Assembly (NCBI GenBank): GCA_040218735.1
Contig: JAVJQW010000046.1
Coordinates: forward strand, 160,001-224,000
Reading direction: 5' to 3'
DNA from: Deltaproteobacteria bacterium
Lineage (GTDB): Bacteria; Myxococcota; Kuafuiibacteriia; Kuafuiibacteriales; Kuafuiibacteriaceae
Length of the DNA: 64,000 nucleotides
A model generated the notes under the pieces. The model was given only the letters and a program-made list of their open reading frames with translations. It searched no databases and was not told the origin of the DNA. Both the position numbers and the translations under genes were made by a program. How positions within the stretch are numbered: the first letter of the stretch is position 1; every line of letters begins with the position of its first letter. Positions 5,030 through 39,177 of the stretch are shown here, one piece after another.

Positions 5030-6367
5030 TCAGTTCGCGTCGAGCATCGCGACGCGGTTTGCGTCGGCCTGGGCGCCGCTCGCGTCGCCGGCGGCGCGGC
5101 GGAGCTCGGGCACGAAGATCGCGGCGCCTTCGGCTTTGGCGGTGGCGCGGTCGAGGTGCTCGAGCAGCTCGGCGGCGGAGAGATCCGGCGGCGCGCAGAC
5201 GATGCCCCGCACGATGTGGTGCATCTTCGGGTCGTGCGCGGCGTGATCGACGTCCGGGTTCATCCAGCACCCGCGACACAGCGTCACGTACTGCTCGGAG
5301 TGCGCGTACACCACGGCGTCGCGCGGGAGATCGGTCGATAGGTTCGCGAGCTGCTGCGCTTCGGTCTGCGTACCGGCGAAGCCGTAGCGCCGGTACCCGT
5401 TGCGCGCGAGCGTCGCGAGGTGCGGGAACACGGCGACCTTGCCGTCACCGTACTTGTGAAACGTGATCGGCGCGCCGTCGAACAGGATCACGTCGCCGTA
5501 GTCGACGCCGAGCGCCTCCTTGTAGACGACCGACCGGATGATGCCGTGGCAGGGGCTCAGGCGCTCCAGCCACACCGTCTCTTCCTCGCCCGGCACCTGC
5601 GCTTCCGCCCGGGTGCGCTCGGCGAGCGGGCGCTGCGCGAGCCGGACCTTCATCGCGGGGTACGAGCCCTCCGGCAGGCCGCTGCCCGCGAGCTCGACCT
5701 TCTGGTCGATGCTGCGCCACATCTCGAGCGCCTTCACGCCGTCCCCGGCCCCTGTCGCGCAGATCCCGAGGTTCCACCGGACGGAGTCGTTGTCGTGGCC
5801 TCCCAAATCGAACGCACGCTGGTTGGCCGCTTGCCCCTCCGCGAACCGCCCACGTGTCTTCAGGAACAGCCCGTAGTCGTAGTGCAGCGCCCAGTCGTCG
5901 TCGTGCGCCGCCACCCGGGTCTTCAGCGCGCGCTCCACGACGTCGTCCCACGTCCGTCCGAGCACACGCCCGACCGTCGCCAGGCCACCGAGGACGGTGA
6001 ACTGAATCGGTCCCTTCGTCCGTGTCGCCAGCACCTTCAGGCGCTCCGCGACCTCGACGAACACCGGTGCTACCGCCGGCGCACCGTTGAGGTCGTCGAT
6101 GTCGTGCACCGTCTCGAGCACGTTGCCGACGGCCGCCACGACGTCGGGCCGATCCTCGTGCGCCGCGAACACGGCCTCGAGCGCTTCCGCGGCGTCCTCG
6201 CGCGCGAGCAGCTGACGCTCCACGATCCCGAGCAGCGCACCGACCGCGTCGAGGTCTTCCTCTTGGAGCGGGAGCAGCGCCGCCGCAGCCTGCCACGCCT
6301 GGTCGGAGGCCCCTTCCGCCGCGTGAGCCTTCACGCGCTCGACGATCTCGGCGATCTCGGCGCTCAC
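5030..6367 (-). CDS. TPR-repeat protein
   Basis: TPR-like segments HYDYGLFLKTRGRFAEG and RWNLGICATGAG; CxxC near the C-terminus. GTG 6367 overlaps the upstream stop. Confidence 0.75.
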   Translation of the reverse strand: MSAEIAEIVERVKAHAAEGASDQAWQAAAALLPLQEEDLDAVGALLGIVERQLLAREDAAEALEAVFAAHEDRPDVVAAVGNVLETVHDIDDLNGAPAVAPVFVEVAERLKVLATRTKGPIQFTVLGGLATVGRVLGRTWDDVVERALKTRVAAHDDDWALHYDYGLFLKTRGRFAEGQAANQRAFDLGGHDNDSVRWNLGICATGAGDGVKALEMWRSIDQKVELAGSGLPEGSYPAMKVRLAQRPLAERTRAEAQVPGEEETVWLERLSPCHGIIRSVVYKEALGVDYGDVILFDGAPITFHKYGDGKVAVFPHLATLARNGYRRYGFAGTQTEAQQLANLSTDLPRDAVVYAHSEQYVTLCRGCWMNPDVDHAAHDPKMHHIVRGIVCAPPDLSAAELLEHLDRATAKAEGAAIFVPELRRAAGDASGAQADANRVAMLDAN

Positions 6368-11594: not shown

Positions 11595-12932
11595 ATGTCC
11601 GAAGCGCTGACCGTCCACCGTCTGCAGTTCGCGTTCACGGTGACGTATCACTACCTCTTCCCGCAGCTCACGATGGGGCTCGCGCTCATCCTCGTCCTGC
11701 TGCGCACGCTCGGGATGCGGACGGGCGACGCGAAGTACGTCGAGATCGCGCGCTTCCTCCAGAAGATCTTCCTCGTCAGCTTCGGCTTCGGCGTCGTGAC
11801 CGGCATCCCGATGGAGTTCCAGTTCGGCACCAACTGGGCGGCGTTTTCGCGCGGGGCGGGGAGCATCGTCGGACAGACCCTCGCGATGGAGGGGGTGTTC
11901 GCGTTCTTCCTGGAGTCGTCGTTCCTGGGTTTTCTGATCTACGGCGAAGACAAACTCGGGGAGCGCGGCACACTCGTCGTCACGGTGTTGTTGTTCGTCG
12001 GCTCCTGGTTGTCCGGCTTCTTCATCATCGTGACGGACGCGTGGATGCAGCACCCCGTCGGTTACGTCATCACGGAGGACGGCACCCTCGCGCTCACCAG
12101 CCTCCTCGACGTGCTCCTCAACGAGTGGGCGTGGTGGCAGTTCGCCCACAACATGCTGGGCGCGACCGTCACCGGCGCCTTCGTCAGCACCGGCATCGCC
12201 GCCTTCTACCTGTTGTCGGGGCGCGCGACCGCACACGCCGAGACGTTGATCCGCGTGACCATCCCGACCGCGCTCGCCGCGTGTGTGCTCTTGGTCTTCC
12301 CCACCGGCGATCAGCAGGGGCGCCTCGTCGCGCAACACCAACCCGTCACGCTCGCCGCGATGGAAGGGCTATTCGACACCCACGAGGGCGCGCCGCTCGC
12401 GCTGATCGGACAGCCCAACGTCGACGAGCGTCGCCTCGACAACCCGCTCGAGATCCCGAACATGTTGTCGTTCCTCACGTACAAACGATGGAACGCCGAG
12501 GTCCGCGGGCTCGACGCGTTCCCGGAGGAGACGTGGCCCGACAACATCCCGCTGCTGTACTTCGCGTACCACGTGATGGTCGGCCTCGGGACGATGTTCA
12601 TCGCGGTGCTCTCGATTGCGTTCCTTCTGCTGCTGAAGAAGCGCCTCACCACCACCCGCCCCGTGCTCTACGTGCTGATGTTGTTCAGCCCGCTCCCGTT
12701 CGTCGCGAACACCGCCGGCTGGATGACCGCGGAGCTCGGCCGTCAGCCCTGGCTGATCTACGGCGTGCTGAAGACGGCCGACGGCGCGTCGCCGCACGTC
12801 GGCGCGGGCAACGCGATGTTCACGCTGCTCGGGTACATGGGCCTGTACACCGTGCTGAGCCTCCTCTACGTGCTGCTGATCGTCCGCGAGCTCGAGCACG
12901 GCCCCGAGCACCACCAAAAGGAGGTCGCGTGA
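11595..12932 (+). CDS. cydA: Cytochrome bd ubiquinol oxidase subunit I (short Q-loop type)
   Basis: RLQFAFTVTYHYLFPQLT, EFQFGTNW, QPVTLAAMEG and GWMTAELGRQPW. Confidence 0.97.
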   Translation: MSEALTVHRLQFAFTVTYHYLFPQLTMGLALILVLLRTLGMRTGDAKYVEIARFLQKIFLVSFGFGVVTGIPMEFQFGTNWAAFSRGAGSIVGQTLAMEGVFAFFLESSFLGFLIYGEDKLGERGTLVVTVLLFVGSWLSGFFIIVTDAWMQHPVGYVITEDGTLALTSLLDVLLNEWAWWQFAHNMLGATVTGAFVSTGIAAFYLLSGRATAHAETLIRVTIPTALAACVLLVFPTGDQQGRLVAQHQPVTLAAMEGLFDTHEGAPLALIGQPNVDERRLDNPLEIPNMLSFLTYKRWNAEVRGLDAFPEETWPDNIPLLYFAYHVMVGLGTMFIAVLSIAFLLLLKKRLTTTRPVLYVLMLFSPLPFVANTAGWMTAELGRQPWLIYGVLKTADGASPHVGAGNAMFTLLGYMGLYTVLSLLYVLLIVRELEHGPEHHQKEVA

Positions 12933-13966
12933 TGGAGACGGTCTGGTTCGCGCTCCTCACGTTCCTCCTCGCCGGGTACGTCGTGCTCGACGGCTTCGAT
13001 CTCGGCGCGGGGGCGATCAGCCCGTGGGTCGCACGCACCCGCGACGAGCGTGCGGCGTTGCTCCGATCCATCGGCCCGCTCTGGGACGGCAACGAAGTCT
13101 GGCTCATCGCCGCGGGGGGGACGTTGTTCATGGCGTTCCCGCGCCTGTTCTCCGCGGCCTTCGCGGGCTTCTACCTCCCGCTCACGATCTTCGTGTGGCT
13201 GATCGTGTTGCGCGGCCTCTCCATCGAGCTGCGCGGACACTTCGAGTCACCGGTGTGGATCGACATCTGGGACTTCGTGTTCTTCGCGTCGAGCGCGCTG
13301 CTCGCGTTGGTACTCGGTGTCGCGCTCGGCAACGTCGTGCGGGGCGTCCCGCTCGACGGCGAAGGCTGGTTCTTCACGCCGCTGTGGACGGACTTCACCC
13401 ACGACGGTCACGTCGGCGTCCTCGACCCGTACACCCTCCTCGTCGGCACCACCGCGCTCAGCGCGCTCGCGTTGCACGGCGCCTCGTGGGTCGCGCACGC
13501 GACGGGCGGTGACCTCGCCGCCCGCGCGCGCCGCGGAGCGACGCGGCTGTGGTGGTCGACCGCGCTGCTCACCACCGGGATGACCGCGGCGTCGTTCGCG
13601 CTGCAGCCGCAGCTCTCCGCCAACCTCGCCGACCAGCCCTGGGGCGCCGCCTTCCCGCTCGTCGCGCTCGGGGGGCTGCTCGCGCACCGCGTGTACCTCG
13701 GCCGCGACGCGCCCACCCGCGCGTTCCTCGGCTCGGGCACCTACCTCGCCGGGATGCTCGCGAGCGTGGCGTTCGGTCTGTACCCGCTGGTCCTCCCGTC
13801 GACGCTCGAGCCGGCCCACGCGCTCACTGCGGCCAACGCCCACGGCCCCGGCGACGGCACGACGGTGGCGCTGTTCTGGTGGATCCCGGGGATGGCGTTG
13901 GTGCTGGGTTACACCGTCCTCGTGTATCGCACGTTCGGGCGAGCAAAAGTGGCCGACCCGAGTTGA
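12932..13966 (+). CDS. cydB: Cytochrome bd ubiquinol oxidase subunit II
   Basis: YVVLDGFDLGAG and IGPLWDGNEVWLI; the ATG overlaps the cydA stop and follows an AAGGAGG RBS. Confidence 0.97.
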   Translation: METVWFALLTFLLAGYVVLDGFDLGAGAISPWVARTRDERAALLRSIGPLWDGNEVWLIAAGGTLFMAFPRLFSAAFAGFYLPLTIFVWLIVLRGLSIELRGHFESPVWIDIWDFVFFASSALLALVLGVALGNVVRGVPLDGEGWFFTPLWTDFTHDGHVGVLDPYTLLVGTTALSALALHGASWVAHATGGDLAARARRGATRLWWSTALLTTGMTAASFALQPQLSANLADQPWGAAFPLVALGGLLAHRVYLGRDAPTRAFLGSGTYLAGMLASVAFGLYPLVLPSTLEPAHALTAANAHGPGDGTTVALFWWIPGMALVLGYTVLVYRTFGRAKVADPS

Positions 13967-14011
13967 GAATCCACCCAACGCGCCGAACTGAATCCTTGGA
14001 GGGAGCTCAGG

Positions 14012-14182
14012 ATGCGCGCGGTGGAGTTGATGGTGGCGCTGGGGATGATCATCACGATGGCAAAGGCCATCTGGTCCGACGAAGCGCCGGTGAGGACCGC
14101 GCGCGTCTGTGTCCTCGAACCGGTCGTCGATGGCCCCGTCACGCCGGACGCGTCGATCGACTTCCACCCGTTCTGCCAGTGA
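14012..14182 (+). CDS. 56-aa small protein with an N-terminal hydrophobic helix
   Basis: Below the ORF-track cutoff. GGAGGGAG SD, then MRAVELMVALGMIITMAKAIWSDEAPVRTARVCVLEPVVDGPVTPDASIDFHPFCQ; 45 nt after cydB. Confidence 0.55.
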   Translation: MRAVELMVALGMIITMAKAIWSDEAPVRTARVCVLEPVVDGPVTPDASIDFHPFCQ

Positions 14183-14195
14183 CGAAGAAACCGCG

Positions 14196-14224
14196 TTGAC
14201 GGTGCCCGATCACGTCTCTACCTT
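14196..14224 (+). promoter_or_regulatory. Sigma70-type promoter
   Basis: TTGACG-N17-TACCTT, followed by the perfect palindrome GCCGTTAACGGC (14226-14237) over the predicted TSS. Confidence 0.6.
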
Positions 14225-14230
14225 GGCCGT

Positions 14231-14847
14231 TAACGGCGTCCGTCGGACGTCGGATCTTTTGCCACGTCTCGAACTGTGAACCTTCACGACGCGGACCGGA
14301 CTGGCCGCGTGCTCGAAAACCTAGCCTGAGCAACACACGACGCTAGAGCGCCTCTTCTTCGCGAAGGGACGTTCGCGGCGCACGCACCCCCGGCCCCGTT
14401 CGCGGGACAATCCGGTGCGTCGCCGTGGTTCACGCCGGTGTGGCGGCCACTCGGATGGGAGCGGCCGTGGCGTGAAGCCTGCCCTCACGTTTCACCATCG
14501 GCTGCGGTTCGCCGTGGCGCGTTGGGGCTGTGGGCCGTTCGCCTTCGGGCGGGCGCCGTTCCTCCACACCGTCGATCGCTCGGGCATCCAGGTTCGATGG
14601 TGCCGTGCACCGCGAAAACACGCCCCGATGCCACCGCCGGCGATTCCCGTCCGGCGTCGAGCCCTGGGGCCGCGGTCGACGGCACCTACGAACCGCCGGG
14701 GAGCCCAAGCGGTCCCGGGGCGAACGGACGATCCGGGCTGCCTCGCGACCCGCCCGCGCGTGACGGAAACGAAAAGAGTCTTCGCATGAATGACAACCTC
14801 GAACCCGCTCGGGCTCGGCCGCTTATCCACCCTGCGGCCGGGCCCGA
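14231..14847 (+). ncRNA. Candidate large structured ncRNA or 5' leader of unknown family
   Basis: No credible CDS. Nested complementary pairs: 14429-14436/14469-14476, 14504-14511/14689-14696 and 14569-14579/14672-14682. cUUCGg hairpin at 14537-14554 and a terminal 14-bp stem at 14809-14847. Confidence 0.45.
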
Positions 14848-14868
14848 ACGCTGCTATGTCCGAGGTGC

Positions 14869-17800
14869 GTGCGGGATCTGTGGCTGTACGATCGGCTCGC
14901 CGCCGACGTGATCGACCGCGAGCTCCTCGGTGAGCTCACCGAGCTCGCCGCGCAGCGTCACACGGTGCGCGCGCCGTTCCTCGCACGCCTGTACCCCCAC
15001 GCGACCCACGAAGACCCCGAGCTCCGCGCCACCATCGTCGCCTGCTTCGCAGGGGTCGAAGGGTACGAAGGCCTCCGCGTCATCGTCCGCGCCCTGAACG
15101 ACGAGATCGCTCAGGTCCGCGACGCCGCCGTCACCGCGCTCCTGAAGACCGGGGCGCGCGCGAACCTCCGCCTCGCCCACGGCCTGTTCCACCACCGCCC
15201 CGACGTCCGCGCGCGCGTCGTCGCGGAGAGCAGCGTCCCGGGCGCGCTCGCGGCGCACCTCCTCGCAGATCCGGCCTCGCGTGACGTCGTCATCGAGCGC
15301 GCCCCTCAGCTCATCCACGGCGGCGACGGGGTCGAGACGATCGTCATGCTCCACACCACGGGTGTCGTCCCGCGCGAAGTCACGCGCGCGGCGCTCCTCG
15401 CGCTGGAGTGGGACGAGCGCACGCAGCCGCTCCTGGAGGGCCTGCCGATCGGGGTGCTCCCGCTGCTGCCGAAGAACCGCGCCGCGCTCGACGAGAGCCT
15501 CCAGGCCGAGAGCAACGACCGGCTCGACGTCGTGCTCCGGCTCGTCGGTGACGACGCCGGGTTCGTCGAGCGCTTCGTGCGGGGCGCGAAGCGGCGCTCC
15601 GTCCAGGGCGCTCAGGGGCTGCGCGTCGCGTGGTCGATCGCTCGGGTCGTCGCGTCGTTCGAGGACCCGCCGCCCGAGATGATCGCGCTGAGCGCGGCGC
15701 ACTTGCCGCTGCTGCTGGCGCACCCGGTGCTGGAGGTCGGCGTCGCGAAGGCGGCGGCGCGTCTGATCGCCGAGCTCCGTCCCAAGGCGGACCTCGAGGA
15801 CCCGCTCGCCGACGTCTTCGGGACGCCGGTGTGCCTCGACGGCGCGATGCTCGACCTCGACGTCATCTCCGGGATCCTGATGCTGTCGAAGGTCCCGCCG
15901 GTGGTGTCGATCGCGACCTACGGGACGATCGCCGAGTGGGAGGCGGCGATCCGCGCGAACCCACGGGCCGGAGTGCCGCTGCTTGCGCAGACGCCGCCGA
16001 GCAAACACGCGAAGCTGTTTCGGGAGCTCGTCGGTGCGCTGCTCGTGTCTCCGCGTCGCGACGCGGAGCTCGTGCTCGACGTCGTCGCCACGGTCTCGAA
16101 CGTGCGCTCGGAGCTGTACTTCCTGGAGGAGGCGGCGTCGCGCGATCGCGACCTCGTGTGGCTGCTCGTGCAGACCGCGATGCGGCGCGAGCGCGAGGGG
16201 TCGTTCGCGTTGTCGAACGTGCAGCGCTCGCGGCTCGTCACTTGGCTCGCCGCGCGCCTCGACGCCGCACAGCTCGACACACTGATGATTCACGTCGCGA
16301 CACGCGCCCAGGTCGAGGGTCAGACCCTCGCCGACGAGATCGTGTGCGCTGCGAGCCGTGCGCGGGGGGAGGGTGTGGCGGATCGTGTCGCTGCGTTCGC
16401 CGTCGAACACCAGCGCGCGGTGCTGATGTGGACGCGCCGCTTCGCGCACTTCCCCTCTGCGGTGTTCTTCGCGATCGCGGGGCGCCTCGCCGCGAGCCCG
16501 GACGCCGAGGTGCGTGCGCTCGCGCAGATCGTCCAGGCGCCGGCGTCGCCCGAGATGCGGATGACGGAGGAGCGCTCGGACGTTCGTGCGCTGACCGAAG
16601 AAGAGACGGACGCGATCCTCGCCGCCGACTCGGCGGATCTCTTCTCGGCGCTGCGCGTGGTCTACACCCACCCGGTGCGCGGCGTCGCGCGCGCGTTGTT
16701 GGATCGCAAGGAGGCCGCGCCGAGCCCGCGCATCGCGGCGGCGATCCTCTTCGGCTTCGACGACCCGGTTCTCACGAGCCGCGCGTTCTCGCGGTACACC
16801 GAGGACGAAGAGACGTTCTGGTCGACGCTCGAGACCGAGATGGTCGACCGCGGTCGCCGCGCGCCGTTCATCCCGCTGATCGCCGCGGCGTGGCTGCACC
16901 GCTGGGAGATCCCGCTGCAGAGCTTGGAGCGCGAGGTGCTCGCGCACCCCGAGGGGCCGTCGGCCGTGCTGCGGGCGAGCCTCTACTGGCCCGCGCCGCT
17001 CCTCGTCACGCAGGTGTGGTGCGGGTTCGCGCGCCTCGCGGCGGTGTGGCGGATGCGTGATCATGAGCGGTTCGCGCGCGTCTTCGACGAGGACCTGGGG
17101 CGGATGGTCGCGATCCAGGTGCACCTGCACGGCGTGCCCGCGGCGCGCATCCTCGTGGAGATGTTCCTCGGCGGCGTCGAGGCCGACGTGATGGAGCGTC
17201 TGCAGCACCTCGTCGTCGCGTTGTTGGATCGCACGACCGAGGTGACGCGCGCGGAGCTCTCGCGCTGGTTCGACACGGACGTCAGCGGCGCGCACGCGGT
17301 CGCGACGGAGGTGGCCACCGACGAGACGTTGGTCGCGGAGGCGATGCGCACGGACGACCCCGCGCGGCTCGCGGAGCTCGCGGCGTGTGATCAGCTGTTC
17401 GTCGCACGCGCCGCGCTCCCGCGGATCGACGAACCGCAGCACCTCGTCGCGCGGGTGCGATCGGGGGCGGTCGGCTTCGGTCGTCACGTGGCCGAGCGCC
17501 TCCTCGCGATCGCGGACCCGGCGACGCTCGACGCGCTCCTCGGAGAGGACGTGGATCCCGCGCTGCGTTTTGCGTTGGGGATGGCGCGCCTGCCGGACGA
17601 GCCGGAGGTGTGGCCTCGTCTCGCGGCGGCGATCTGCGCGCCGTCCGGTCGGCGCTGGTTCCTCGACGACGACCTCACGGCGATCCGCGACGCGGGCGTG
17701 CTCGAGCACCGCATCGGCTGTGACCTCGCGACCTCCGACCAGCTCGCGGCGTACGCCGAGGCGGTGCGGATCCTCGTCGAGAGCGAGATGGGCGGTGAGG

Positions 17801-19851
17801 TTCGCGATGCGCTCCTCGCGTTCCTCGACCAGGGGACGGAGCGGCTCTTGGCGGTGCGCACGTCGGCGGCGCGGCGTCTGTTCGCGTGCGGGGTGCGTCG
17901 TGCGTTCCCGCTGGCGCTCACGGCGGCGCTCGACGCGTGGGAGCGCCTCGCGCCGGGGGTGCAGGCGGGGCCGTTTGCTTCGTTGAATCCGCAGTGCGCC
18001 GAGGAGGCCGCGACGTGTGTCGTCACGGCGGGGCGCAGCGGGGCGACGCGCCGGTTGCTCGACGAGCTCGAGCGGATGAGCCCGATGGACAACCAAGAGG
18101 CGCTCACCGCGATCCTCGCGCAGGCCGAGACGAAGGAGATCCAGGAGCGTGCGCTCCGGGCGCTCAGCCGTGACCTGTCGTCCCAGGGGCGCGTACGTCG
18201 GCTCGCGGAGATCTTCGCGTGGGGCGCCAAGGAGTCGCGGTTGCTCGTCGGCTCCGCCTACCGCGTGCACCTGATCGGCGGCGACGCGTACGGCTACACC
18301 CGCCTCGAAGAGAAGTCGATCTACGTGAACCCGATGGCGTTCCTCCGCGGCCACCGCGACGGGGAGGGGGTGCTGCGCGGTCTCATCCTCCACGAGCTCG
18401 GTCACCACATGTTCCACGCCGACAAACCGGCGCTGAAGATCTGGAAGGACGCCGAGCGAGAGAAGCGGCACTCGCTGTTGAACCTCGTCGCCGACGAACA
18501 CCTGGAGCGAAACCTCCGCGCGCGGCGAACGGAGCACGGCGACTACCTGAAGACGCTCGCGGCGCACGCGTTTCAGCACCAGCGTCGCGCGGTCGAGGTC
18601 ATGGAGCTCGCGCAGCGCCTCGGGCCGCACACGTTCGCGGTGTTGTCGGCGGCCCGGTTGGAGGTCGCGCGTTCGCCGGCGCAGGTCGAGGTCGCGCTCG
18701 GGATGTTGTTCCGCGAGATGGAGCGGAGCGGCACGAGCTTCGTGCGCTTCGTGCGTGCGTTGCGGATGGGGCTCGGCGATCGCTACGGCGATCCGAAGGT
18801 GAAGGAAGCGCTCGCGCTGTTCGACAAGTCGTTCAGGAAGTCGTCGATGGAGCAGCTCTGGTCGATCACCAAGAAGCTGATCGAGATCTTCGGCGAGGAG
18901 GCGAAGCTCATCGAGGTCCTCGATCTGCACGACAACGCCAACGGCACCGGGAGCGGAGTGGAAGGCGACGCGCGCGCGCGGCGGGGCGTCGACGACGAGT
19001 CCGTGCAGCGCGAGGTCGATCGCATCCTCGACGGCGACAAGACCAAACCCAAACACGGCGACCGCACGATCAACCGGAGCGAGGACGAGTCGTTCGACGA
19101 GATCCGCGACATCCAGCGCGTCGCCCCCGAGCCGGAGCAGCACCGCGATGGCGTTCGACGCGTCGCGCGTGCGGCGCGGCGCCTGCGCGAGGTGCTGAAG
19201 GTGTTGGGTCTGCAGCTCGAGCCGAGGCGTGCCCGGCTGAAGGGGCGCAAGGTGGATCGCGGTGGGTTGCCGCGCGCGATCGTTCGACGGGATCCGCGGA
19301 TGCTCGTCGCGCGCGAGGCCGTGCAGCGCGCCGACCTTTCGCTGTCGGTGTTGATCGATTGCTCGGGGTCGATGTCGCTCGACCAGAACCTCGAGAAGGC
19401 GAAGCTGTTCGGCCTCTTGATCGCCGAAGCGTGCCGCGGGTTACGCGGGGTCGACGCGACCTTCTGGGGCTTCTCGGACGTGTCGATCTTCGACGCGGGC
19501 TCCGCGGAGCGCTGCGCGGTGTCCGGCCTCACGCTGCAGGGCGGCAACAACGACGCGGGGGCGCTGTGGCACGTCGCCCAGGTGGGGCGCCGTTCGACGC
19601 GCCGCGCGAAGGTGCTCGTGATGATCAGCGACGGCTCCCCGACGGAGTGCTCGGTGGCGGCGCTGCGGGCGCTCGTGCGCAAGCTGGAGCGGCGCTACGG
19701 CTACGTGTGTGCGCAGGTGGCGGTGCGCCGGCTCGACGAGGAGTGCTTCACGCACCACATCGACCTCATCGACGACGACCTCGACCGCGCCGTGCGGCGG
19801 TTCTCGAAGGTCGTGTCGCGGCTGGTGCGTCAGGCCTTGTCAGGCGCGTGA
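14869..19851 (+). CDS. Large HEAT/ARM-repeat protein with an HExxH metallopeptidase-like domain and a C-terminal vWA domain
   Basis: HEAT-like ALNDEIAQVRDAAVTAL; ILHELGHH; NLVADEHLE; vWA MIDAS DCSGS, GGNND and ISDG. Confidence 0.85.
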   Translation: MRDLWLYDRLAADVIDRELLGELTELAAQRHTVRAPFLARLYPHATHEDPELRATIVACFAGVEGYEGLRVIVRALNDEIAQVRDAAVTALLKTGARANLRLAHGLFHHRPDVRARVVAESSVPGALAAHLLADPASRDVVIERAPQLIHGGDGVETIVMLHTTGVVPREVTRAALLALEWDERTQPLLEGLPIGVLPLLPKNRAALDESLQAESNDRLDVVLRLVGDDAGFVERFVRGAKRRSVQGAQGLRVAWSIARVVASFEDPPPEMIALSAAHLPLLLAHPVLEVGVAKAAARLIAELRPKADLEDPLADVFGTPVCLDGAMLDLDVISGILMLSKVPPVVSIATYGTIAEWEAAIRANPRAGVPLLAQTPPSKHAKLFRELVGALLVSPRRDAELVLDVVATVSNVRSELYFLEEAASRDRDLVWLLVQTAMRREREGSFALSNVQRSRLVTWLAARLDAAQLDTLMIHVATRAQVEGQTLADEIVCAASRARGEGVADRVAAFAVEHQRAVLMWTRRFAHFPSAVFFAIAGRLAASPDAEVRALAQIVQAPASPEMRMTEERSDVRALTEEETDAILAADSADLFSALRVVYTHPVRGVARALLDRKEAAPSPRIAAAILFGFDDPVLTSRAFSRYTEDEETFWSTLETEMVDRGRRAPFIPLIAAAWLHRWEIPLQSLEREVLAHPEGPSAVLRASLYWPAPLLVTQVWCGFARLAAVWRMRDHERFARVFDEDLGRMVAIQVHLHGVPAARILVEMFLGGVEADVMERLQHLVVALLDRTTEVTRAELSRWFDTDVSGAHAVATEVATDETLVAEAMRTDDPARLAELAACDQLFVARAALPRIDEPQHLVARVRSGAVGFGRHVAERLLAIADPATLDALLGEDVDPALRFALGMARLPDEPEVWPRLAAAICAPSGRRWFLDDDLTAIRDAGVLEHRIGCDLATSDQLAAYAEAVRILVESEMGGEVRDALLAFLDQGTERLLAVRTSAARRLFACGVRRAFPLALTAALDAWERLAPGVQAGPFASLNPQCAEEAATCVVTAGRSGATRRLLDELERMSPMDNQEALTAILAQAETKEIQERALRALSRDLSSQGRVRRLAEIFAWGAKESRLLVGSAYRVHLIGGDAYGYTRLEEKSIYVNPMAFLRGHRDGEGVLRGLILHELGHHMFHADKPALKIWKDAEREKRHSLLNLVADEHLERNLRARRTEHGDYLKTLAAHAFQHQRRAVEVMELAQRLGPHTFAVLSAARLEVARSPAQVEVALGMLFREMERSGTSFVRFVRALRMGLGDRYGDPKVKEALALFDKSFRKSSMEQLWSITKKLIEIFGEEAKLIEVLDLHDNANGTGSGVEGDARARRGVDDESVQREVDRILDGDKTKPKHGDRTINRSEDESFDEIRDIQRVAPEPEQHRDGVRRVARAARRLREVLKVLGLQLEPRRARLKGRKVDRGGLPRAIVRRDPRMLVAREAVQRADLSLSVLIDCSGSMSLDQNLEKAKLFGLLIAEACRGLRGVDATFWGFSDVSIFDAGSAERCAVSGLTLQGGNNDAGALWHVAQVGRRSTRRAKVLVMISDGSPTECSVAALRALVRKLERRYGYVCAQVAVRRLDEECFTHHIDLIDDDLDRAVRRFSKVVSRLVRQALSGA

Positions 19852-19927: not shown

Positions 19928-20707
19928 ATGAAATCCAAAACAATCCTACTCTCTGCCGTCCTGGTCACCCCCCTGCTCGCAGGCGCCGAAGGCGGCTGCG
20001 GTGGCGCCATCAACTCCATGACCGACGCTCCGTCGATGAACGGGACGTGGGACATCACGTACGACGACCGCCTCGACATCGAGGTGAAGCTCGGCGGCGC
20101 GGTCTACACGGAGACGCTCCCTTCCTCGGGTGGCAGCTTCACGATCGATCACGCGGGCACGCCGATCACGTTCGACCTCGACTGCGCGAAGCCGGAGGTC
20201 ATCTGCCCGAGTGAGACGTGGCCGATGTCCGTCCAAGCCGAGCACCGGAACGCGCGCTTCCCGCACCGGTTCTTCGTGAGCATCCCGCGCCAGTCTTGCG
20301 ACGGTACGCTCGTCGATCCCGACACGTCGGAGTGCGGCGCGGGCACGAGCAACCCGGATTGTGGTCAGGTCTGCGACGGCGAGATGAAGACGACGAACAC
20401 CGATCACTTCGGCGTGGTGAACGAGGCCGGCACCGCGTTCGACCTGCTCCTCGGCGCCGGCGTCGCGACCAACGGCATCAACTGCGCGCTCCTCGGTATC
20501 TCCGCCGCCAAGGCGAACCTCGAGACCTCGGGGTCCAGCACCGACGGTGACTGGGAGGCGACGGGCATGAAGGACGGCGAGGTCGCGGTCGCGTACACGG
20601 GCGGGTGCCTGTGGGCGGGTGATCCGAACGACGACGGGACGATCGAAGCGCTGACGATCGGCGCGCAGCTGAAGTTCACGACCGGCTTCGAAGGCAGCCG
20701 CCGGTAG
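19928..20707 (+). CDS. Cys-rich secreted protein or lipoprotein
   Basis: GAGGAG SD; MKSKTILLSAVLVTPLLAGAEGGCGG; multiple Cys. Confidence 0.75.
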   Translation: MKSKTILLSAVLVTPLLAGAEGGCGGAINSMTDAPSMNGTWDITYDDRLDIEVKLGGAVYTETLPSSGGSFTIDHAGTPITFDLDCAKPEVICPSETWPMSVQAEHRNARFPHRFFVSIPRQSCDGTLVDPDTSECGAGTSNPDCGQVCDGEMKTTNTDHFGVVNEAGTAFDLLLGAGVATNGINCALLGISAAKANLETSGSSTDGDWEATGMKDGEVAVAYTGGCLWAGDPNDDGTIEALTIGAQLKFTTGFEGSRR

Positions 20708-20708
20708 G

Positions 20709-23700
20709 TCACCGTAACGACCGATCCAGATCCTGCGCGCGGTCCTGAATCCAGCGGCCGCGCGCGAGCTGGTTCCACGCCTCGAAGCGCTCGACGATCG
20801 CGAACACTTCGTTCAGCGCGTCGCGCGCCGCCGCCGCATCCCCCGCCATCTCGCGCGCCGTCGCGTAGATCAGCAGCGCTTCGGCCAGGTTCACGCCGTT
20901 GTCGATCGTCTCGGAGCGACGCCAGCGTCGTGAGAACGACTCGACGCTCAACGCCGCCTCGTTCGCCGCCTCGAACGGGGCGAAGCGCGCGAGTTGGAGT
21001 CGCGCGCTCCCAAGGTGCGCGTGACCGAAGTAGTAGCTGAAGCGTGGGTTCGTCGGGTCGAGCTTCATCTGCGCGTCCATCGCCGCGAGCGCTTGCGCGA
21101 ACTGAGACTGTGCGGCGTCGAGCTCCCCGGCGTGAATCAAAGCCTCGCCGAGGCCGCAGCGCGCGACGACGATGCGCAAGTGTGTCGCGCGGCGCCCGGG
21201 CCGTTCTCGCTGCGCGATCTCCAGGACGTCGAGCGCGCGCGTGAGCTCGACGCGCGCCTGCTCGAACCGACGCGCTTCGGCCGCGTACTCCCCGGCCCGC
21301 AGGTGCAGCCAAGACCGACCGTCGACCGCCGCGAGGGCGTCCTGGGGCGCGCGTCGCTCGGACGCGGCGCGTGCCCGATCGAGCTCGGCGAAGGCCTCGT
21401 CGACTTCGCCCATGCGGGACGCGAGCGTCGCGCGGCCGACGTGCATCCGGACGAGGCGCTCGAGGTCCTCGTCGTCAGGCGTCGCCTCCAACAGAGGAGC
21501 GAGCAGGCGCTCGTAGGCCTCGGTCGCCTCCACCGCGGTCTCGAAGGGGCCGACGCCTTCACACAGTGACTGCTGATCGCCGAGCACGTCGATCAGGATG
21601 CGCCGCGCGGCGACGTCGTCTGCGTCGGCCTGGACGACGGGGACGAGCAGCTCGCGCGCGTCCGCGTTGCGCGTGCGCGCGAGCGCGTAGTCGAGGTCAC
21701 TTCGGTCCTGCCAGTGCAGCTCGCGCAGCGTCTTCGCCAGCTCCAGCTTCGCGTCGACGGAGTCGGGCGCGAGCGCGACGCGGCGTCGACCGAGGCGCTC
21801 CGCTTCGAGGAGCTCGCGCACCGCGAGGTCGTGCGCTTCGTAGCGGCTCGCGAGGCTCGCGCGTTTGCGGTGGCTCCGCACGCGACTCGCGATGACCTCC
21901 AAGGACGAACCGTCGTCACCGTTCAGTCGGTCGAGCAGATCGCCGGCGGTGTCGAGGAGCTCACCCCGCGCGCCGCTCGTCCCGGGGATGCGCGCGAGCT
22001 GGTCGTCGAGATCGTGCACGAGCCGGTCGGCGACTTGCTTGGCCTCGGCGCGGCGTCGCTCCGCGATCACCCGCTGTGCTTCGGCCTCGGCGCGTTCGAA
22101 CATCGCCCACACCGCGAGCACGAGCGCGAGCGCGAGCGCGACGGAGAGCGCGAAGACCCGTCGACGAAACTCGCGCGCGCTACGCGAGCGTCGCAGCTCC
22201 TCCGCGGCGACGGCCGCGTCCACGAACGCCCGCGCCGTGCGGTCCTCGGCCTCCGCGCTCCGGTAGTACGCGAGCTGTCCGCCCCGCGGCAGACCATCTT
22301 CGGGGCGTCCCGCCGTGTGCCACGCGAGCGCCGCCGTGCGCAGCTCTTCTCGTCGCTCGAGATCACGACGGCTCGCGTCGACCCACCGACGCAGCTGTGG
22401 CCACTTGTCGAGCAGCGCTTCGTGCACGAGGTCGACGTGATCGTCGGCGACGACGATCAGCCGCGCATCCGCGAGGCTCGAGAGGACACGCTTCGCTTCC
22501 GCCCCGCCCCCGGCGGCTTCGACCGCGCGCTCGTAGGGGATCGTGCGTCGCACGTCGGGCTGGTCTCGGCCGCTCACGACCAGCGCGAGCATCAACGTGC
22601 GCGCCCGAACGCGCCCCTCTTCTCCGAGCGCTTCCAGGACCGCGTCGGCGCTCCGCGCGAGCGCGCCGCCGAGGCCGCCGATCCGCTCGTACGCCTCCAC
22701 CGTGATCGTTCGACCGCCGCAGTCCACCCACAGCGTTCGCAGCGCGTGGCTCACCAGCGGCAGCGAGCCGGGTTCGTTGCCGGCGTCCGCGATGATGCGG
22801 TCCGGGAGCTCGGGCGCCCACGTCGTCCCGGTCAACGCGGCGGGGCCGACGATCGCTTGGCGGAGCGCAGCCCCGGTGAGCGGGCGTAGCTGGTAGCGCG
22901 CGGCCGCGTCGTTGAGCAGCGGTCCGAGCCCGGGGAGCCGGCTGACCTCCTGCGCGAAGTCGGTGCGCATCGTCGTGACGAGATAGATCGGCGCGTCGAG
23001 GGTGACGGCGTCGGTGAGCCAGCGATCGAGCTCGAGCGCCGCTCGGGTCTCGGGTGCGCGGAACAGCTCTTCGAGCTGGTCGACCACGATCAGCAGACCT
23101 TCGTCGGAGTCGAGATCCTCCGCGACCTCGCGGACTGGATCGTCCGAGGTGGTCCCGAGCGCCGCGCGAAGCGCACCGGCGGGATCGTCGCCGGGCCGAA
23201 TCACCGCGGCGCGCCAGCTCGTCGGCCCGCCGGCGATCCACCCGCAGCGGATGGCGGGGAGGAGGCCGGCCCGGACCACCGACGACTTGCCCACGCCGCT
23301 CGCGCCCTCCACGGCGAGCCACCGGCGGCTCGGCCCCATCCGGGCGACGAGCTCGCGAATCTCGTGGCTGCGTCCGAAGAAGAAGAGCGACTGGTCCTCG
23401 CGGAACGCGGCGAGGCCGGGGAAGGGCTCGCGGTCGTCGGTCGCTTCGATCTCGACGACCGACCGGGTGCCCACGCCGTGCGCGGCGGCGATCCGCCGGA
23501 CCTCCGCGAGCACGGCGGAGGCCGAGGCCGGGCGCCCGTCGGGCGTCGGGGCGAGGCAGCGGCGCACCAGATCGTCGAGGGCCGGCGGCACGTCTCTTGT
23601 GGTCGTCCGTAGCGACGCCGCCCCGATCGGAGCGGCGTCGTCCTCGAAGGGGCGCTCGCCGCTGAGCATCTCGTACGCGATCACACCGATCGCGAAGACG

Positions 23701-35771: not shown

Positions 35772-38018
35772 GTGATGAATCGCATGAAGACCCCGACGCT
35801 GGGGATGACCGCCTTGCTCCTCGCCGCCTGCGGCGGAGCACCCGCTACGTTCGACGAGGCCACGAGCGAGACGATCGGCACGGGCTCACCGCCCATCGAC
35901 GACGACATCGCCTCGCTCGTCGAGCCCGATCGGCTCGTGGGGATCGGGATCTCTGGGACAACCGACGAGGTCCTCGCGTGGACCGCGGCGAACACCGTCA
36001 GCGGTGGCAACGCGACGAACTTCGCTTGGACCCGCTCCCCCAACCGCTTCACCACGGCGCCCAATCACTCCGCGGCGCAGATCGTCGCGAACGCGGTCGC
36101 GACCGACGGAACGGTGCACACCTGGTACGGGGACGGCACGTACACCACCGGTGACTCCAACCACCTCGCCTTCCAGGGCCCGCAGGCCTTCGGGATCCCG
36201 GGCGGACGGACGCCGCTGAACATCGTCGGCATCGCGATCGCCAAACCCTCCGACCTCGTCTACGCGTGGTACGACGACGGGCAGGTGAGCGTCGGCGACG
36301 CCTGGGACCTCGGTTCGCGAACGGGTCCGCACCGGATGTGGCCGACGGAGCGCGCGTACGCACCGGCCGCCGGGCGGACCCCGGCCGACGTGATCGATAT
36401 GGCGATCGAGGTGGCGCGCGTGAACCGCGTCGTCGCTTGGTATCGCGACGGGTACGCGAGCGAGGGGACCTTCGAGGACCTGGACGCCCACCGCGGGCCG
36501 TTCCACTACACGCGACACGGGGTGTTGAAGGGGGTCTATCCCGAGACGCCGCCGTCGCTGCCTTCGGGACCGCCGTCCGCGGCGCCGCCGTGGTCGTCTG
36601 CGCCGCCGGTGTCGATGCTGGACATCAGCGCCGGCGACCAGGACAACGGCGTGGCGGCCGGCCACAACTTCTTCGCGGTCGCGCTGAATGACTCCGTCCG
36701 GTTCTACACCCGCGACGGCACGTCGCTGATGACCGCGGATCTCGACGCGATGTTCGAACCCTTCAAGCGGTCGTCACCCAACGGGGCAACGCCCCGCCCG
36801 CTCGACGTCAACCACTACATCGGCTTCGACACCCCCTGCGACGACCCGTCCTATCCGACGACCAACGCCTACCGCTACTGCGTGAGCGGCGGCGCGTACG
36901 ACACCCGGGTGGAGTACGACAAGATCGGTCGCCGCTTCGTGATCGTCGCGCAGATCAGAAATCCGCTGTGGACGAACATCTTCTCCGCCAATCCCCGGCA
37001 GAACATCTCGCCCGCCGAGCCCTACGTCAGCGGCTACGCCTACCCGAACCCTCCGGACGGCGCGCCCAAGACCATGAACGCCGGGGCCAACGGTGGGCTC
37101 GCGCGTCGCCTGAAGGTGGTGGCCGTCTCGCGCGCCGAGGATCCGGCGCTCGGCTTTCACACCTACGTGTTCGTCCAGAACAACTACCGCGACTGGCCGT
37201 GGATGAGCATCAACGGCGACTGGCTCGTCCTCGCGAACCGTGGACCCGAGCAGATCAACGGGCCGGTCGCGACGTTGATGTCCCTCGCAGAGCTGCGCGA
37301 CGGCGTGGAGCGGCCTCAGTTCGTACACTACAAACGGCAAGAGCTCGAGGGTGCGATCGTCGCCGGTCCGGCGCGCCACCACGGGACGCCGCAGTCACTC
37401 CTCCTCGGCGTGGATGACGATGCCACGTGGCGCGTGTTTGCGCTGACCCACCCGACGCTGCCCTACGACAAGGTCCCCGCCGGGAGCACGGTGCTGCCGG
37501 TCCCCGGTCGAGACGTGACCAACGAGCGTGCGGTGTACCGCGACGGTTTCCTCCACGTGGTGGCGCACTTCCCGCGAACCGGAATGGGGGGCTTCTTCGA
37601 GATCGACTACTTCCGGATCCCGGTCACGATGAACGGCAACGTCCCGGTGCTCTCGGTTCGGTACCCGGGCTTCCGATCCGCGTCCTACTCGGACCCGACC
37701 CAAGCCCGGTCGTACGAGGAGCCGGGCATGCAGGTGAACAGCACGGGCGACGTCCTGCTCCTGTACGGCGCGGCGAGCGGCGGCGTCGTCGCGGCCCAAG
37801 ACCAGGTGTTCCGCGTCCTGTGGCCCGCGAACGCGTCGGCGCCATCGTCGCCGGTGGTCTGGCGCTCCGGCCAGATCGATGTCAGCAGCCACGGGGACGT
37901 GATCCATGCGCTCCACTTCGCTACGGACCCCGTCGACCCCACGGCGTTCTGGGCCATCCACAAGGTTCGCAACGCCGCGGGCAGCTGGCGCACCTTCGTG
38001 GGGACGTACAAGCCGTAG
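35772..38018 (+). CDS. Large lipoprotein with four N-terminal ~47-53 aa repeats and a beta-rich C-terminal domain
   Basis: Lipobox LAAC; repeated (I/L)VG.AI....V.AWY.DG....G...L motif. Confidence 0.8.
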   Translation: MMNRMKTPTLGMTALLLAACGGAPATFDEATSETIGTGSPPIDDDIASLVEPDRLVGIGISGTTDEVLAWTAANTVSGGNATNFAWTRSPNRFTTAPNHSAAQIVANAVATDGTVHTWYGDGTYTTGDSNHLAFQGPQAFGIPGGRTPLNIVGIAIAKPSDLVYAWYDDGQVSVGDAWDLGSRTGPHRMWPTERAYAPAAGRTPADVIDMAIEVARVNRVVAWYRDGYASEGTFEDLDAHRGPFHYTRHGVLKGVYPETPPSLPSGPPSAAPPWSSAPPVSMLDISAGDQDNGVAAGHNFFAVALNDSVRFYTRDGTSLMTADLDAMFEPFKRSSPNGATPRPLDVNHYIGFDTPCDDPSYPTTNAYRYCVSGGAYDTRVEYDKIGRRFVIVAQIRNPLWTNIFSANPRQNISPAEPYVSGYAYPNPPDGAPKTMNAGANGGLARRLKVVAVSRAEDPALGFHTYVFVQNNYRDWPWMSINGDWLVLANRGPEQINGPVATLMSLAELRDGVERPQFVHYKRQELEGAIVAGPARHHGTPQSLLLGVDDDATWRVFALTHPTLPYDKVPAGSTVLPVPGRDVTNERAVYRDGFLHVVAHFPRTGMGGFFEIDYFRIPVTMNGNVPVLSVRYPGFRSASYSDPTQARSYEEPGMQVNSTGDVLLLYGAASGGVVAAQDQVFRVLWPANASAPSSPVVWRSGQIDVSSHGDVIHALHFATDPVDPTAFWAIHKVRNAAGSWRTFVGTYKP

Positions 38019-38070
38019 CTCACGGCCGCGCCCTTGTGTGGGGATTGGCGCCCACGTAGAACGCCGGGCG

Positions 38071-39177
38071 ATGAGCAAGCTGTCGATCGAAGAGGTCCGC
38101 GAGGGTCGCACGATGGAGGCGACCTTCTGGCTCAACCCGGTCGACGGCGAGAAGTACCGCTTCCGGGCGACCCACCTCGACGGTCGGCGCGCCCCAAAGG
38201 TCGTCCTCTCCGACGACGCGCGCATCACGCCCGGCACGCCGTGCCGGGTGCGCGTGAAGAAGGTCCACAAGAAGGAGCGCAAACACCGCGGCTGGATCGA
38301 GGTGGAGTTCATCGAGCGCGTGTCGTTCGAGCCGGACGGCGTCTACCTCGACCCGGTGGTGTCGAAGAAACTCCAGGTCTGCCTGGAGAGCGGGCTCAAC
38401 ATCCTCCTCGACGGACCGCAGGGCTGCGGCAAGACGGTGCTCGCGCGCGCGATCGGCAAGTCGCTCGGGATGGAGCTCGTGTTCTTCAACTGCGCCGCCG
38501 TCGTCGAGGCCACCGACTTCCTCGCCACGATCCAGGTGCGGGCGGGCGAGGGCGGTGCGCCGGTCACCGACTTCGTGAAGACGGAGATCCTCACCGCGCT
38601 GGAGGCGGCCGCCGAGAACCCGGGGCGTCGCTACCTCGTGTTCTTGGACGAGCTCAACCGCTGCCAAGAGAGCGCGCGCAACGCGTTGATGCCGGCGCTC
38701 GATTCGTCGCGGCGGGTCTTCGATCCGACGAGCAACCGCTTCGTCGAGATCCCCGACAACGTGCTGTTCATCGCGGCCGTCAACCGCGGCTCGGAGTTCT
38801 CGGGGACGTTCGGGATCGACGCCGCGCAGCTCGATCGCTTCGCCCCGATCCAGATGACGTACCTCCCTCCGAAGGAGGAGGAGCGCCTCCTCGCGGACCG
38901 GCACCCGGAGCTCGGCAAGAAGATCGTTCACGCGATCGTCGATCTCGCGGATCGCATTCGGCACATGTCCGATCTCCAGAGCGGCCTCTCCGTGCGCGCG
39001 ACGGAGGAGGTGTGCATCTACCTCAAACACCCGCTCTTCGAGGAAGACCGGTGGGCCGCGCTCCCCGAGATCCTGAAGTCGTCGTTCTGCGGGCGCTTCT
39101 CCGGTTCGTGGGGTGACACGACGACCGACGCCGGCGCGGTGTGGCTCGTCATCGAGCGCGCGTTAGTCGAGGACTGA
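38071..39177 (+). CDS. MoxR-family AAA+ ATPase with a short N-terminal beta domain
   Basis: Walker A GPQGCGKT, Walker B VFLDELNR, AAVN, LDRF and SVR. Confidence 0.9.
   Translation: MSKLSIEEVREGRTMEATFWLNPVDGEKYRFRATHLDGRRAPKVVLSDDARITPGTPCRVRVKKVHKKERKHRGWIEVEFIERVSFEPDGVYLDPVVSKKLQVCLESGLNILLDGPQGCGKTVLARAIGKSLGMELVFFNCAAVVEATDFLATIQVRAGEGGAPVTDFVKTEILTALEAAAENPGRRYLVFLDELNRCQESARNALMPALDSSRRVFDPTSNRFVEIPDNVLFIAAVNRGSEFSGTFGIDAAQLDRFAPIQMTYLPPKEEERLLADRHPELGKKIVHAIVDLADRIRHMSDLQSGLSVRATEEVCIYLKHPLFEEDRWAALPEILKSSFCGRFSGSWGDTTTDAGAVWLVIERALVED

Follow-up and report, generated by a model that had tools for sequence, protein, structure and literature searches.

What occupies the long non-coding gap upstream of a giant gene in this DNA, and is it tied to that gene? 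The window analysed here is 64 kb of contig C59 from the 11.6-Mb genome G000 (69% G+C), and homologues of its proteins are labelled mostly Myxococcota or Deltaproteobacteria. The gap (14183-14868) ends at the GTG start codon (14869) of the vWA gene (14869..19851, plus strand), which encodes a 1660-amino-acid (aa) HEAT-solenoid/HExxH/MIDAS-type vWA protein. It is non-coding: the codon-phase G+C signal is absent from about 14200 to 14860, and a measure of phase spread puts the window's two longest non-coding-like stretches at 14145-14505 and 14535-14865. Both measures bear out the preliminary description of this DNA, which had taken the gap as the longest one free of coding sequence. Comparison across genomes showed that it holds a conserved, structured non-coding RNA (ncRNA) on the plus strand, which co-occurs with the vWA protein. 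Where the preliminary description had proposed a novel ncRNA or a large regulatory leader, we find an uncatalogued structured RNA that is tied to the vWA gene by co-occurrence, and a plain leader fits only some of the genomes.

No catalogued RNA family matches the gap. Rfam 15 at gathering thresholds gave no match in the whole window, and at E up to 10 over 13900-15100 it returned only mir-1304 (27 versus 90 bits) and ASdes (14 versus 40 bits), both far below threshold. ARAGORN detected no tRNA- or tmRNA-like gene in 13900-15000, and no account of this RNA, or of an RNA partner for a MoxR-vWA system, was found in the parts of the literature available to us. The element is single-copy within the G000 genome. 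A DNA search of 40 relatives matched the sister species G001; five others gave only 27-49-nucleotide (nt) matches (E 0.002-0.007), which were taken as chance. Within the order, two of 20 genomes matched (G000 and G001), and protein-seeded locus searches returned G001's contig only from genome contigs and none from metagenome contigs. With a 22-nt pattern from an invariant stretch, one true homologue was recovered from metagenomes on a 1.3-kb contig (L019), along with one chance match (L020, 23 nt inside a glycosyltransferase-like reading frame).

Covariance models widened the family. R1, a model of the structural core from three sequences, found the RNA in seven of 151 phylum-wide genomes (G000, G001, G039, G119, G124, G126 and G132) and in five of 38 genomes in the order of G119, adding G152. 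R2, a model of the P2 hairpin from nine sequences, recovered all R1 genomes and added G138 (47 bits), in which P3, the 3'-domain motif and the pseudoknot strand are present as well. The sequences behind both models come from the family that these models then found, and the 151 genomes were scanned regardless of the protein. An R2 match in G078 (35 bits, E 0.0065) was judged false (an open codon-biased frame without P3 and pseudoknot strand), and about one such match is expected over 151 genomes; two R1 matches (L029 5653-5755, minus strand, and L033 209-384, plus strand; E 0.003-0.006) were left out as spurious. In total the models place the RNA in nine genomes of three families and on one metagenome contig. 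Lacking an Rfam match and conserved with covariation in three families, the predicted RNA is a new family.

The structural core (14372-14555, plus strand) is composed of helix P1, hairpin P2, domain P3, hairpin P4 and a loop-to-strand pseudoknot, all of them predicted elements that are supported by compensatory changes. P1 (14373..14428) is a long helix (14373-14388/14414-14428) closing an apical hairpin (14393-14408). RNAalifold predicted 65 core pairs from three sequences, 10 of them with a compensatory change, and five of these 10 sit in one P1 helix, where both sides changed in L019 and still pair. Conservation peaks in P2 (14429..14476), a hairpin of three tiers that has a 6-nt bulge, a 1x1 internal loop and GGAUGG as its loop (14453-14458); 14424-14483 is 100% identical between G000 and G001. 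Across nine aligned sequences, eight of them distinct, 93.4% of the cells in its 17 pairs are paired and six pairs changed on both sides; the covariation score of 0.218 (0.132 in shuffles) was reached by one of 500 shuffles, and slid-register controls gave 0-1 pairs changed on both sides. The P3 domain (14477..14535) consists of P3a (14477-80/14532-35), a 3-nt bulge, P3b (14481-90/14519-28), a CCAUC strand (14495-14499) and an inner hairpin. This architecture is common to all nine sequences, with P3a of 4 bp always containing one G.U pair, the 3-nt bulge, and P3b of 4-9 bp. The P3b sequence varies between lineages, and the pairing of P3a, P3b and P4 persists; the variable inner hairpin lies 3' of the pseudoknot strand in families f1 and f15 and in L019, and 5' of it in family f17. 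P4 (14536..14555) has a cUUCGg loop in G000, and at this position nine of nine sequences have a hairpin, though not of one sequence.

The pseudoknot joins the 6-nt P2 loop to the conserved single strand within P3 (CCAUC, 14495-14499). The two strands read GGAUGG/CCAUC in G000, G001, L019 and G124, and GGGUGG or AGGUGG opposite CCACC in G039 and in four species of genus g58; G126 has GGACGG opposite CCGCC, which amounts to one A.C mismatch plus one compensatory change. Nine of ten sequences contain a 5-nt stretch perfectly complementary to the P2 loop, and shuffles of the same stretch contain one in 2-16% of trials per sequence. Helices P1-P4 and the pseudoknot thus vary compensatorily beyond controls. 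All sequence features named in the preliminary description are present at the positions given there. Several of its stems, at 14378-14423 (P1), 14429-14476 (P2), 14537-14554 (P4) and 14289-14310 as well as the terminal stem, are present and gain comparative support. The two nested long-range pairings that it listed (14504-14511/14689-96 and 14569-79/14672-82) exist as complementary letters and are not conserved: neither side of the 14504/14689 pair stays complementary in G001, and L019 has lost the 14689 partner by deletion and carries an unrelated sequence in place of the partner of 14569.

Divergence from close relatives also sets the core apart. Against G001, whose two contigs for this region leave 14542-14648 uncovered, the core (14372-14538) has 0.108 substitutions per site without 3-periodicity, versus 0.18-0.25 with a third-position excess in the coding flanks and 0.27-0.30 in the 5' and 3' parts. 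A relative with 97% identity, sampled as public DNA contigs (run X13), differs at 11 of 686 sites in the gap versus 17/283 and 9/232 in the flanks, counts that cover the 37 differences listed out of 40 in the piece overall; there are zero differences over 14206-14371.

The domains around the core are less sharply defined. The 5' domain (14263..14371, plus strand; 0.30 substitutions per site against G001) includes the hairpin 14289-14310, kept in G001, and by eye shares a short motif with G039. The 3' domain (14556..14809, plus strand) contains conserved blocks, shared with L019 and G039, and a small hairpin (14723-14733) inside a longer stem; the stem flanking this hairpin changes on both sides, in an alignment that is uncertain here. 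A terminal hairpin of 13 bp (14810..14846, plus strand), without a U-tract, ends 22 nt before the GTG start. Its stem is kept in G001, with U14815.G14841 changed to U-A there and in run X4, and its loop has diverged; at the matching place L019 has a hairpin with a U-rich tail.

At the other end, the promoter-like TTGACG-N17-TACCTT of the preliminary description is present at 14196..14224 on the plus strand (TTGACG 14196-14201; TACCTT 14219-14224). A consensus promoter scan scored no site there because the -10 hexamer matches the consensus at only 3 of 6 positions, and G001 keeps both hexamers (TTGACG/TAACTT) while the spacer diverges. The putative transcript start at about 14231 falls 3 nt ahead of an 8-bp hairpin with a T-run (14234..14262, plus strand), which a scan calls terminator-like and in which two pairs changed on both sides in G001 with pairing kept; this hairpin may be the cyd operon terminator or a 5' stem-loop of the RNA. 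The RNA would thus be a plus-strand structured ncRNA of about 450-640 nt, its ends placed by prediction, with a pseudoknotted core, a 3' domain and a closing hairpin. Its transcription in G000 would begin at about 14231 or continue from the cyd operon by read-through, and the vWA gene, 22 nt past the terminal hairpin, would be co-transcribed behind it. In other genomes it would stand alone as an RNA gene that has a terminator-like hairpin of its own.

The RNA and the vWA protein are found together. The C-terminal half of the protein is encoded in eight of the 151 genomes, and R2 finds the RNA in the same eight once the false match in G078 is set aside; G152 likewise has both. In a wider set the protein is present in nine of 401 genomes. 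Within g58 both occur in four species and neither in the other two (G082 and G130, 94% and 95% complete), although negatives in incomplete genomes are weak. The positive genomes belong to f1 (one of its 12 genera), f15 and f17, and the class of G039 contains neither f1 nor f17. The RNA stands directly upstream of the vWA gene on the same strand in G000, G001 and G124 (P2 lies about 320 nt from the start codon in G124), and 1.4 kb upstream in G039 with two minus-strand open reading frames (ORFs) between. RNA and gene are found on separate contigs in G119, G138 and G126, where the 2-4.6 kb preceding the gene contain no copy of the RNA; G152 has no vWA gene within 2 kb after the RNA, and the G132 contig is too short to judge linkage. 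A lipoprotein-like ORF follows the RNA in L019. The neighbours of unlinked copies differ even within g58, being kinase-AAA_16-TPR and cyclic-nucleotide (cNMP)-binding proteins in G119, and glycosyltransferase and TPR proteins in G152. Non-adjacency in G119, G138, G126 and G152, with differing neighbours, argues for a role in trans.

The protein itself offers few leads from sequence searches, with weak Pfam matches to HEAT_2, HEAT and VWA and none in NCBIfam, PADLOC or PDB sequences. At E <= 1e-5 its family has 517 members, which are about 1700 aa long and are annotated as hypothetical or VWA-domain proteins. AlphaFold models residues 1-1100 as an all-helical solenoid (predicted local distance difference test (pLDDT) 90.5), for which only generic solenoid matches were obtained (karyopherins, CAND1 and processome HEAT proteins; template modelling (TM) scores 0.1-0.23), and residues 1101-1660 as an HExxH-bearing helical domain plus a vWA domain (pLDDT 86.9). 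The vWA domain is nearest to the MIDAS domains of Rea1 (Z 19.3) and MDN1 (Z 19.2) and to NorD (Z 18.6; Foldseek E 1.4e-8). Across 48 sequences the HELGHH, DEHLER and DCSGS motifs are invariant or nearly so, DCSGS being invariant. Next downstream of the vWA gene in G039 and G119 is a MoxR-type AAA_5 ATPase gene; in G124 it comes about 0.8 kb further along the same strand. Its orthologue in G000 (37906..39177, plus strand; tblastn match 38077-39171 with 71% identity to the AAA_5 gene of G039) is 18 kb from the vWA gene, and the pair is therefore split in this genome. Taken together, the 1660-aa protein is a plausible component of a machine.

Several observations weigh against reading the gap as the source of an RNA partner of this protein. 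The ten RNA sequences come from about six lineages, and since kin are not independent the co-occurrence rests on about three family-level lineages plus gain and loss within g58. Cross-family alignments of the 5' and 3' domains are uncertain, that of the 3' domain too much so to model; public sequencing runs listed with the locus include none of RNA type, the matching ones being DNA contigs; Pfam, NCBIfam and fold searches recognised no RNA-binding domain in the 1660-aa protein; and known MoxR-vWA pairs (NorQD, CobST) have proteins and metal centres as their targets rather than RNA. Folding energy is mixed. On the plus strand the core (14372-14538) has a z of only -0.92, and 33 of 200 shuffles fold as well, whereas on the minus strand its z is -3.46; P2 is neutral between strands (93.4% of cells paired on plus versus 94.1% on minus). 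The region 14231-14868 as a whole beats shuffles on both strands (z -3.55 on plus and -4.44 on minus, 0/20 shuffles each), and so does its 3' part (14539-14868) on the plus strand (z -4.0, 0/100 shuffles); the 5' part (z -0.91 on plus) does not. Background windows of 330 nt, 26 in number, gave a mean z of 0.06 (sd 0.61, minimum -1.03). Because on the plus strand the 3' part is the only one to stand out, folding energy backs that part and not the core, and used by itself it would have missed the most important part of the RNA. The minus-strand values, together with the neutral P2, speak for a functional minus-strand transcript, antisense opposite the vWA gene leader, yet we consider such a transcript very improbable. 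On the minus strand, C.A mismatches would replace the one G.U pair that P3a has in nine of nine sequences as well as several G.U pairs that are invariant in P1 and P3. Natural variants point the same way: in X13, 14382 A>G and 14418 C>T create G.U pairs on the plus strand, 14399 T>C replaces a U.G pair by C-G, and in run X4 a U.G pair becomes U-A through 14841 G>A; those at 14382, 14418 and 14841 stay paired on the plus strand only. Moreover, a hairpin with a T-run or T-rich tail lies 3' of the element on the plus strand in L019, G132, G126 and G138, and the RNA shares its strand with the vWA gene in all four adjacent cases. Such evidence favours plus as the probable functional strand.

The lack of room for a promoter between RNA and vWA gene in G000, G001 and G124 fits a cis-acting leader of that gene equally well. 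In such a riboswitch-like or protein-binding 5' untranslated region the core could act as a sensor for the protein itself or for a ligand, and the terminal hairpin, so close to the GTG start, could gate read-through or translation; the highly conserved pseudoknotted core resembles an aptamer, and autoregulation by the protein would explain the co-occurrence too. We nevertheless regard a leader as rather unlikely, given the RNA-free upstream regions in G119, G138 and G126, the two minus-strand ORFs that intervene in G039, and the assorted genes downstream of unlinked copies (cNMP-binding, TPR, lipoprotein-like ORF), which sit behind hairpin-plus-T-run terminators or long spacers. A length of 450-640 nt is also several times the usual aptamer size. 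Alternatively, RNA and gene could have been inherited jointly on one island and later rearranged, mimicking co-occurrence, so that an autonomous ncRNA of unrelated function would owe its distribution to one horizontally moving island. The patchiness of both (nine of 401 genomes; one of 12 genera of f1), the adjacency in three lineages as an expected remnant, and a protein without RNA-binding signature are compatible with such an island; retention of both where they are separated (g58 and G126), and joint presence in four and joint loss in two g58 species, are unexpected for unrelated unlinked genes and make it distinctly unlikely in our judgement. As for the suggestion in the preliminary description that this might be a retron-type msr/msd RNA with its reverse transcriptase elsewhere, it now has next to no chance: the genome's five reverse transcriptases (RVT_1 matches) lie on contigs C28, C20, C8, C9 and C69 and none on C59, no Rfam retron RNA family matches, the RNA co-occurs with the vWA protein (reverse transcriptase co-occurrence was compared in G000 only), and it is several times longer than a typical msr/msd.

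Co-occurrence that outlasts physical separation, the terminator-like hairpins and the changing neighbours fit an RNA acting in trans with the protein system. From these comparisons we put at about even the prospect that the RNA is a partner of the HEAT/HExxH/MIDAS-vWA protein, not its simple cis leader. As a partner of this protein and its MoxR-type AAA+ ATPase, the RNA might serve as a bound subunit, scaffold or substrate, and we infer a physical or functional contact between RNA and protein. More tentatively, and by analogy, the RNA may possibly be an integral subunit or dedicated substrate of a bacterial midasin-like machine made of the HEAT solenoid, the zincin-like HExxH domain, the MIDAS-vWA domain and an AAA_5 ring. 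Were this true, it would be a new bacterial ribonucleoprotein and the first known MoxR-vWA system working with or on a dedicated RNA, with remote functional counterparts in the action of Rea1 upon pre-ribosomes and in Ro60 with its Y RNA.

Around the gap lie further genes. Upstream are cydA (11595-12932) and cydB (12932-13966), assigned by Pfam matches, followed by a 56-aa ORF (14012..14182, plus strand) with a codon-phase G+C signal, which we count as an upstream neighbour of the RNA. It is conserved at the protein level in G001 (substitutions by codon phase 16/5/19), has a Shine-Dalgarno-like site and a hydrophobic N-terminus, matched nothing in Pfam or NCBIfam, and may encode a small cytochrome bd accessory subunit. 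Following the vWA gene, an ORF at about 19930-20707 (plus strand; no Pfam match) starts with a signal-peptide and lipobox-like N-terminus (MKSKTILLSAV...GC), and a 1228-aa protein with protein kinase, nSTAND1 nucleoside triphosphatase (NTPase) and TPR repeats is encoded convergently at 20709-24395 (minus strand). A kinase-AAA_16-TPR protein is encoded divergently beside the unlinked RNA copy in G119; a kinase/NTPase/TPR gene near the RNA or the vWA gene may be a third component or a coincidence.

Other genomes have features of their own beside the RNA. In G039, one ORF between RNA and vWA gene (L028 4408-5043, minus strand, 211 aa) resembles by eye a small inner-membrane protein in its C-terminal part. 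In G119 (L029, contig G119:C59, about 5700-5850), three tandem hairpin-forming units of about 34 nt come after the RNA and before a T-rich terminator and the cNMP-binding gene. About 250-300 nt upstream of the core in g58 (L029, L031, L032), a strong Shine-Dalgarno sequence and ATG, invariant in three species, open a 55-70-aa ORF whose frame is kept through indels and whose peptide is poorly conserved. Analogous small ORFs with Shine-Dalgarno and ATG, unrelated in sequence, precede the core in G124 and G126. Such small ORFs may be translated leaders or part of the RNA.

Large RNAs with complex folds are seldom met in bacteria, and every new class of them has led towards unexpected biochemistry. 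The distribution of this one equals, in the genomes searched, that of an orphan protein family (517 public members) with a MoxR-type ATPase partner. Few clients are known for MoxR-vWA systems, a widespread group of chaperone-like machines, and a dedicated RNA partner would supply one subfamily with a client or cofactor that can be tested. If the proposed partnership is true, RNA-protein machines of the Ro60 or midasin kind would extend to Myxococcota-type bacteria, and an orphan giant protein and an orphan RNA would become one experimentally tractable pair.

How does this pair compare with known systems? Like OLE, GOLLD, ROOL, HEARO and raiA, the RNA is several hundred nt long, multi-domain, pseudoknotted, intergenic, recognised through its conservation and narrow in lineage range. 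It matches none of them in Rfam 15 by sequence or structure and is far rarer (nine of the genomes searched), and strict co-occurrence with a protein distinguishes it from most of them. It resembles a riboswitch or protein-binding mRNA leader in G000, G001 and G124, where its pseudoknotted, conserved core leads to a hairpin close ahead of the start codon; it differs in not always lying 5' of a controllable gene, in having its own terminator-like hairpin elsewhere and in being much longer than known aptamers.

A closer likeness in make-up is to Ro60 (Rsr) and its Y RNA or YrlA, where a protein with HEAT-type repeats and a vWA/MIDAS domain is accompanied by a structured ncRNA encoded nearby on the same strand, and RNA and protein share their phylogenetic distribution. 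According to the available part of one report, YrlA is within 4 kb of a Ro60 orthologue on the same strand, and TROVE forms a HEAT-repeat ring (PMC4201824). Linkage of this type, within a few kb on one strand, is seen here in G000, G001, G124 and G039, and not in G119, G138, G126 and G152. Against kinship stand the 1100 N-terminal residues, which match generic solenoids only, and a protein three times larger with an added HExxH domain. Pfam gave no TROVE match and no Ro60-like fold was found for either half, although a distant relation could escape such searches; for the C-terminal model, D. radiodurans Ro (2nvo) comes only 49th, at a TM of 0.21 through the vWA domain. The RNA exceeds a Y RNA in length by a factor of 3-5, lacks a tRNA-like module, matches neither Y RNA nor YrlA in Rfam, and is often unlinked. 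Judged by analogy, the parallel is therefore one of composition and gene arrangement only, and membership is not supported.

The protein side is also akin to NorQ-NorD and Rea1/Mdn1, with a MIDAS-type vWA fold, a DxSxS motif and an AAA_5 ATPase as the usual downstream neighbour. Rea1, according to the titles of PDB entries, remodels an RNA-protein particle, the pre-60S ribosome. The vWA adaptor described here departs from both systems by adding an 1100-aa HEAT solenoid and an HExxH domain. To our knowledge no bacterial MoxR-vWA pair has a known RNA partner, and the co-occurrence of an AAA_5-vWA system with a dedicated ncRNA is new.

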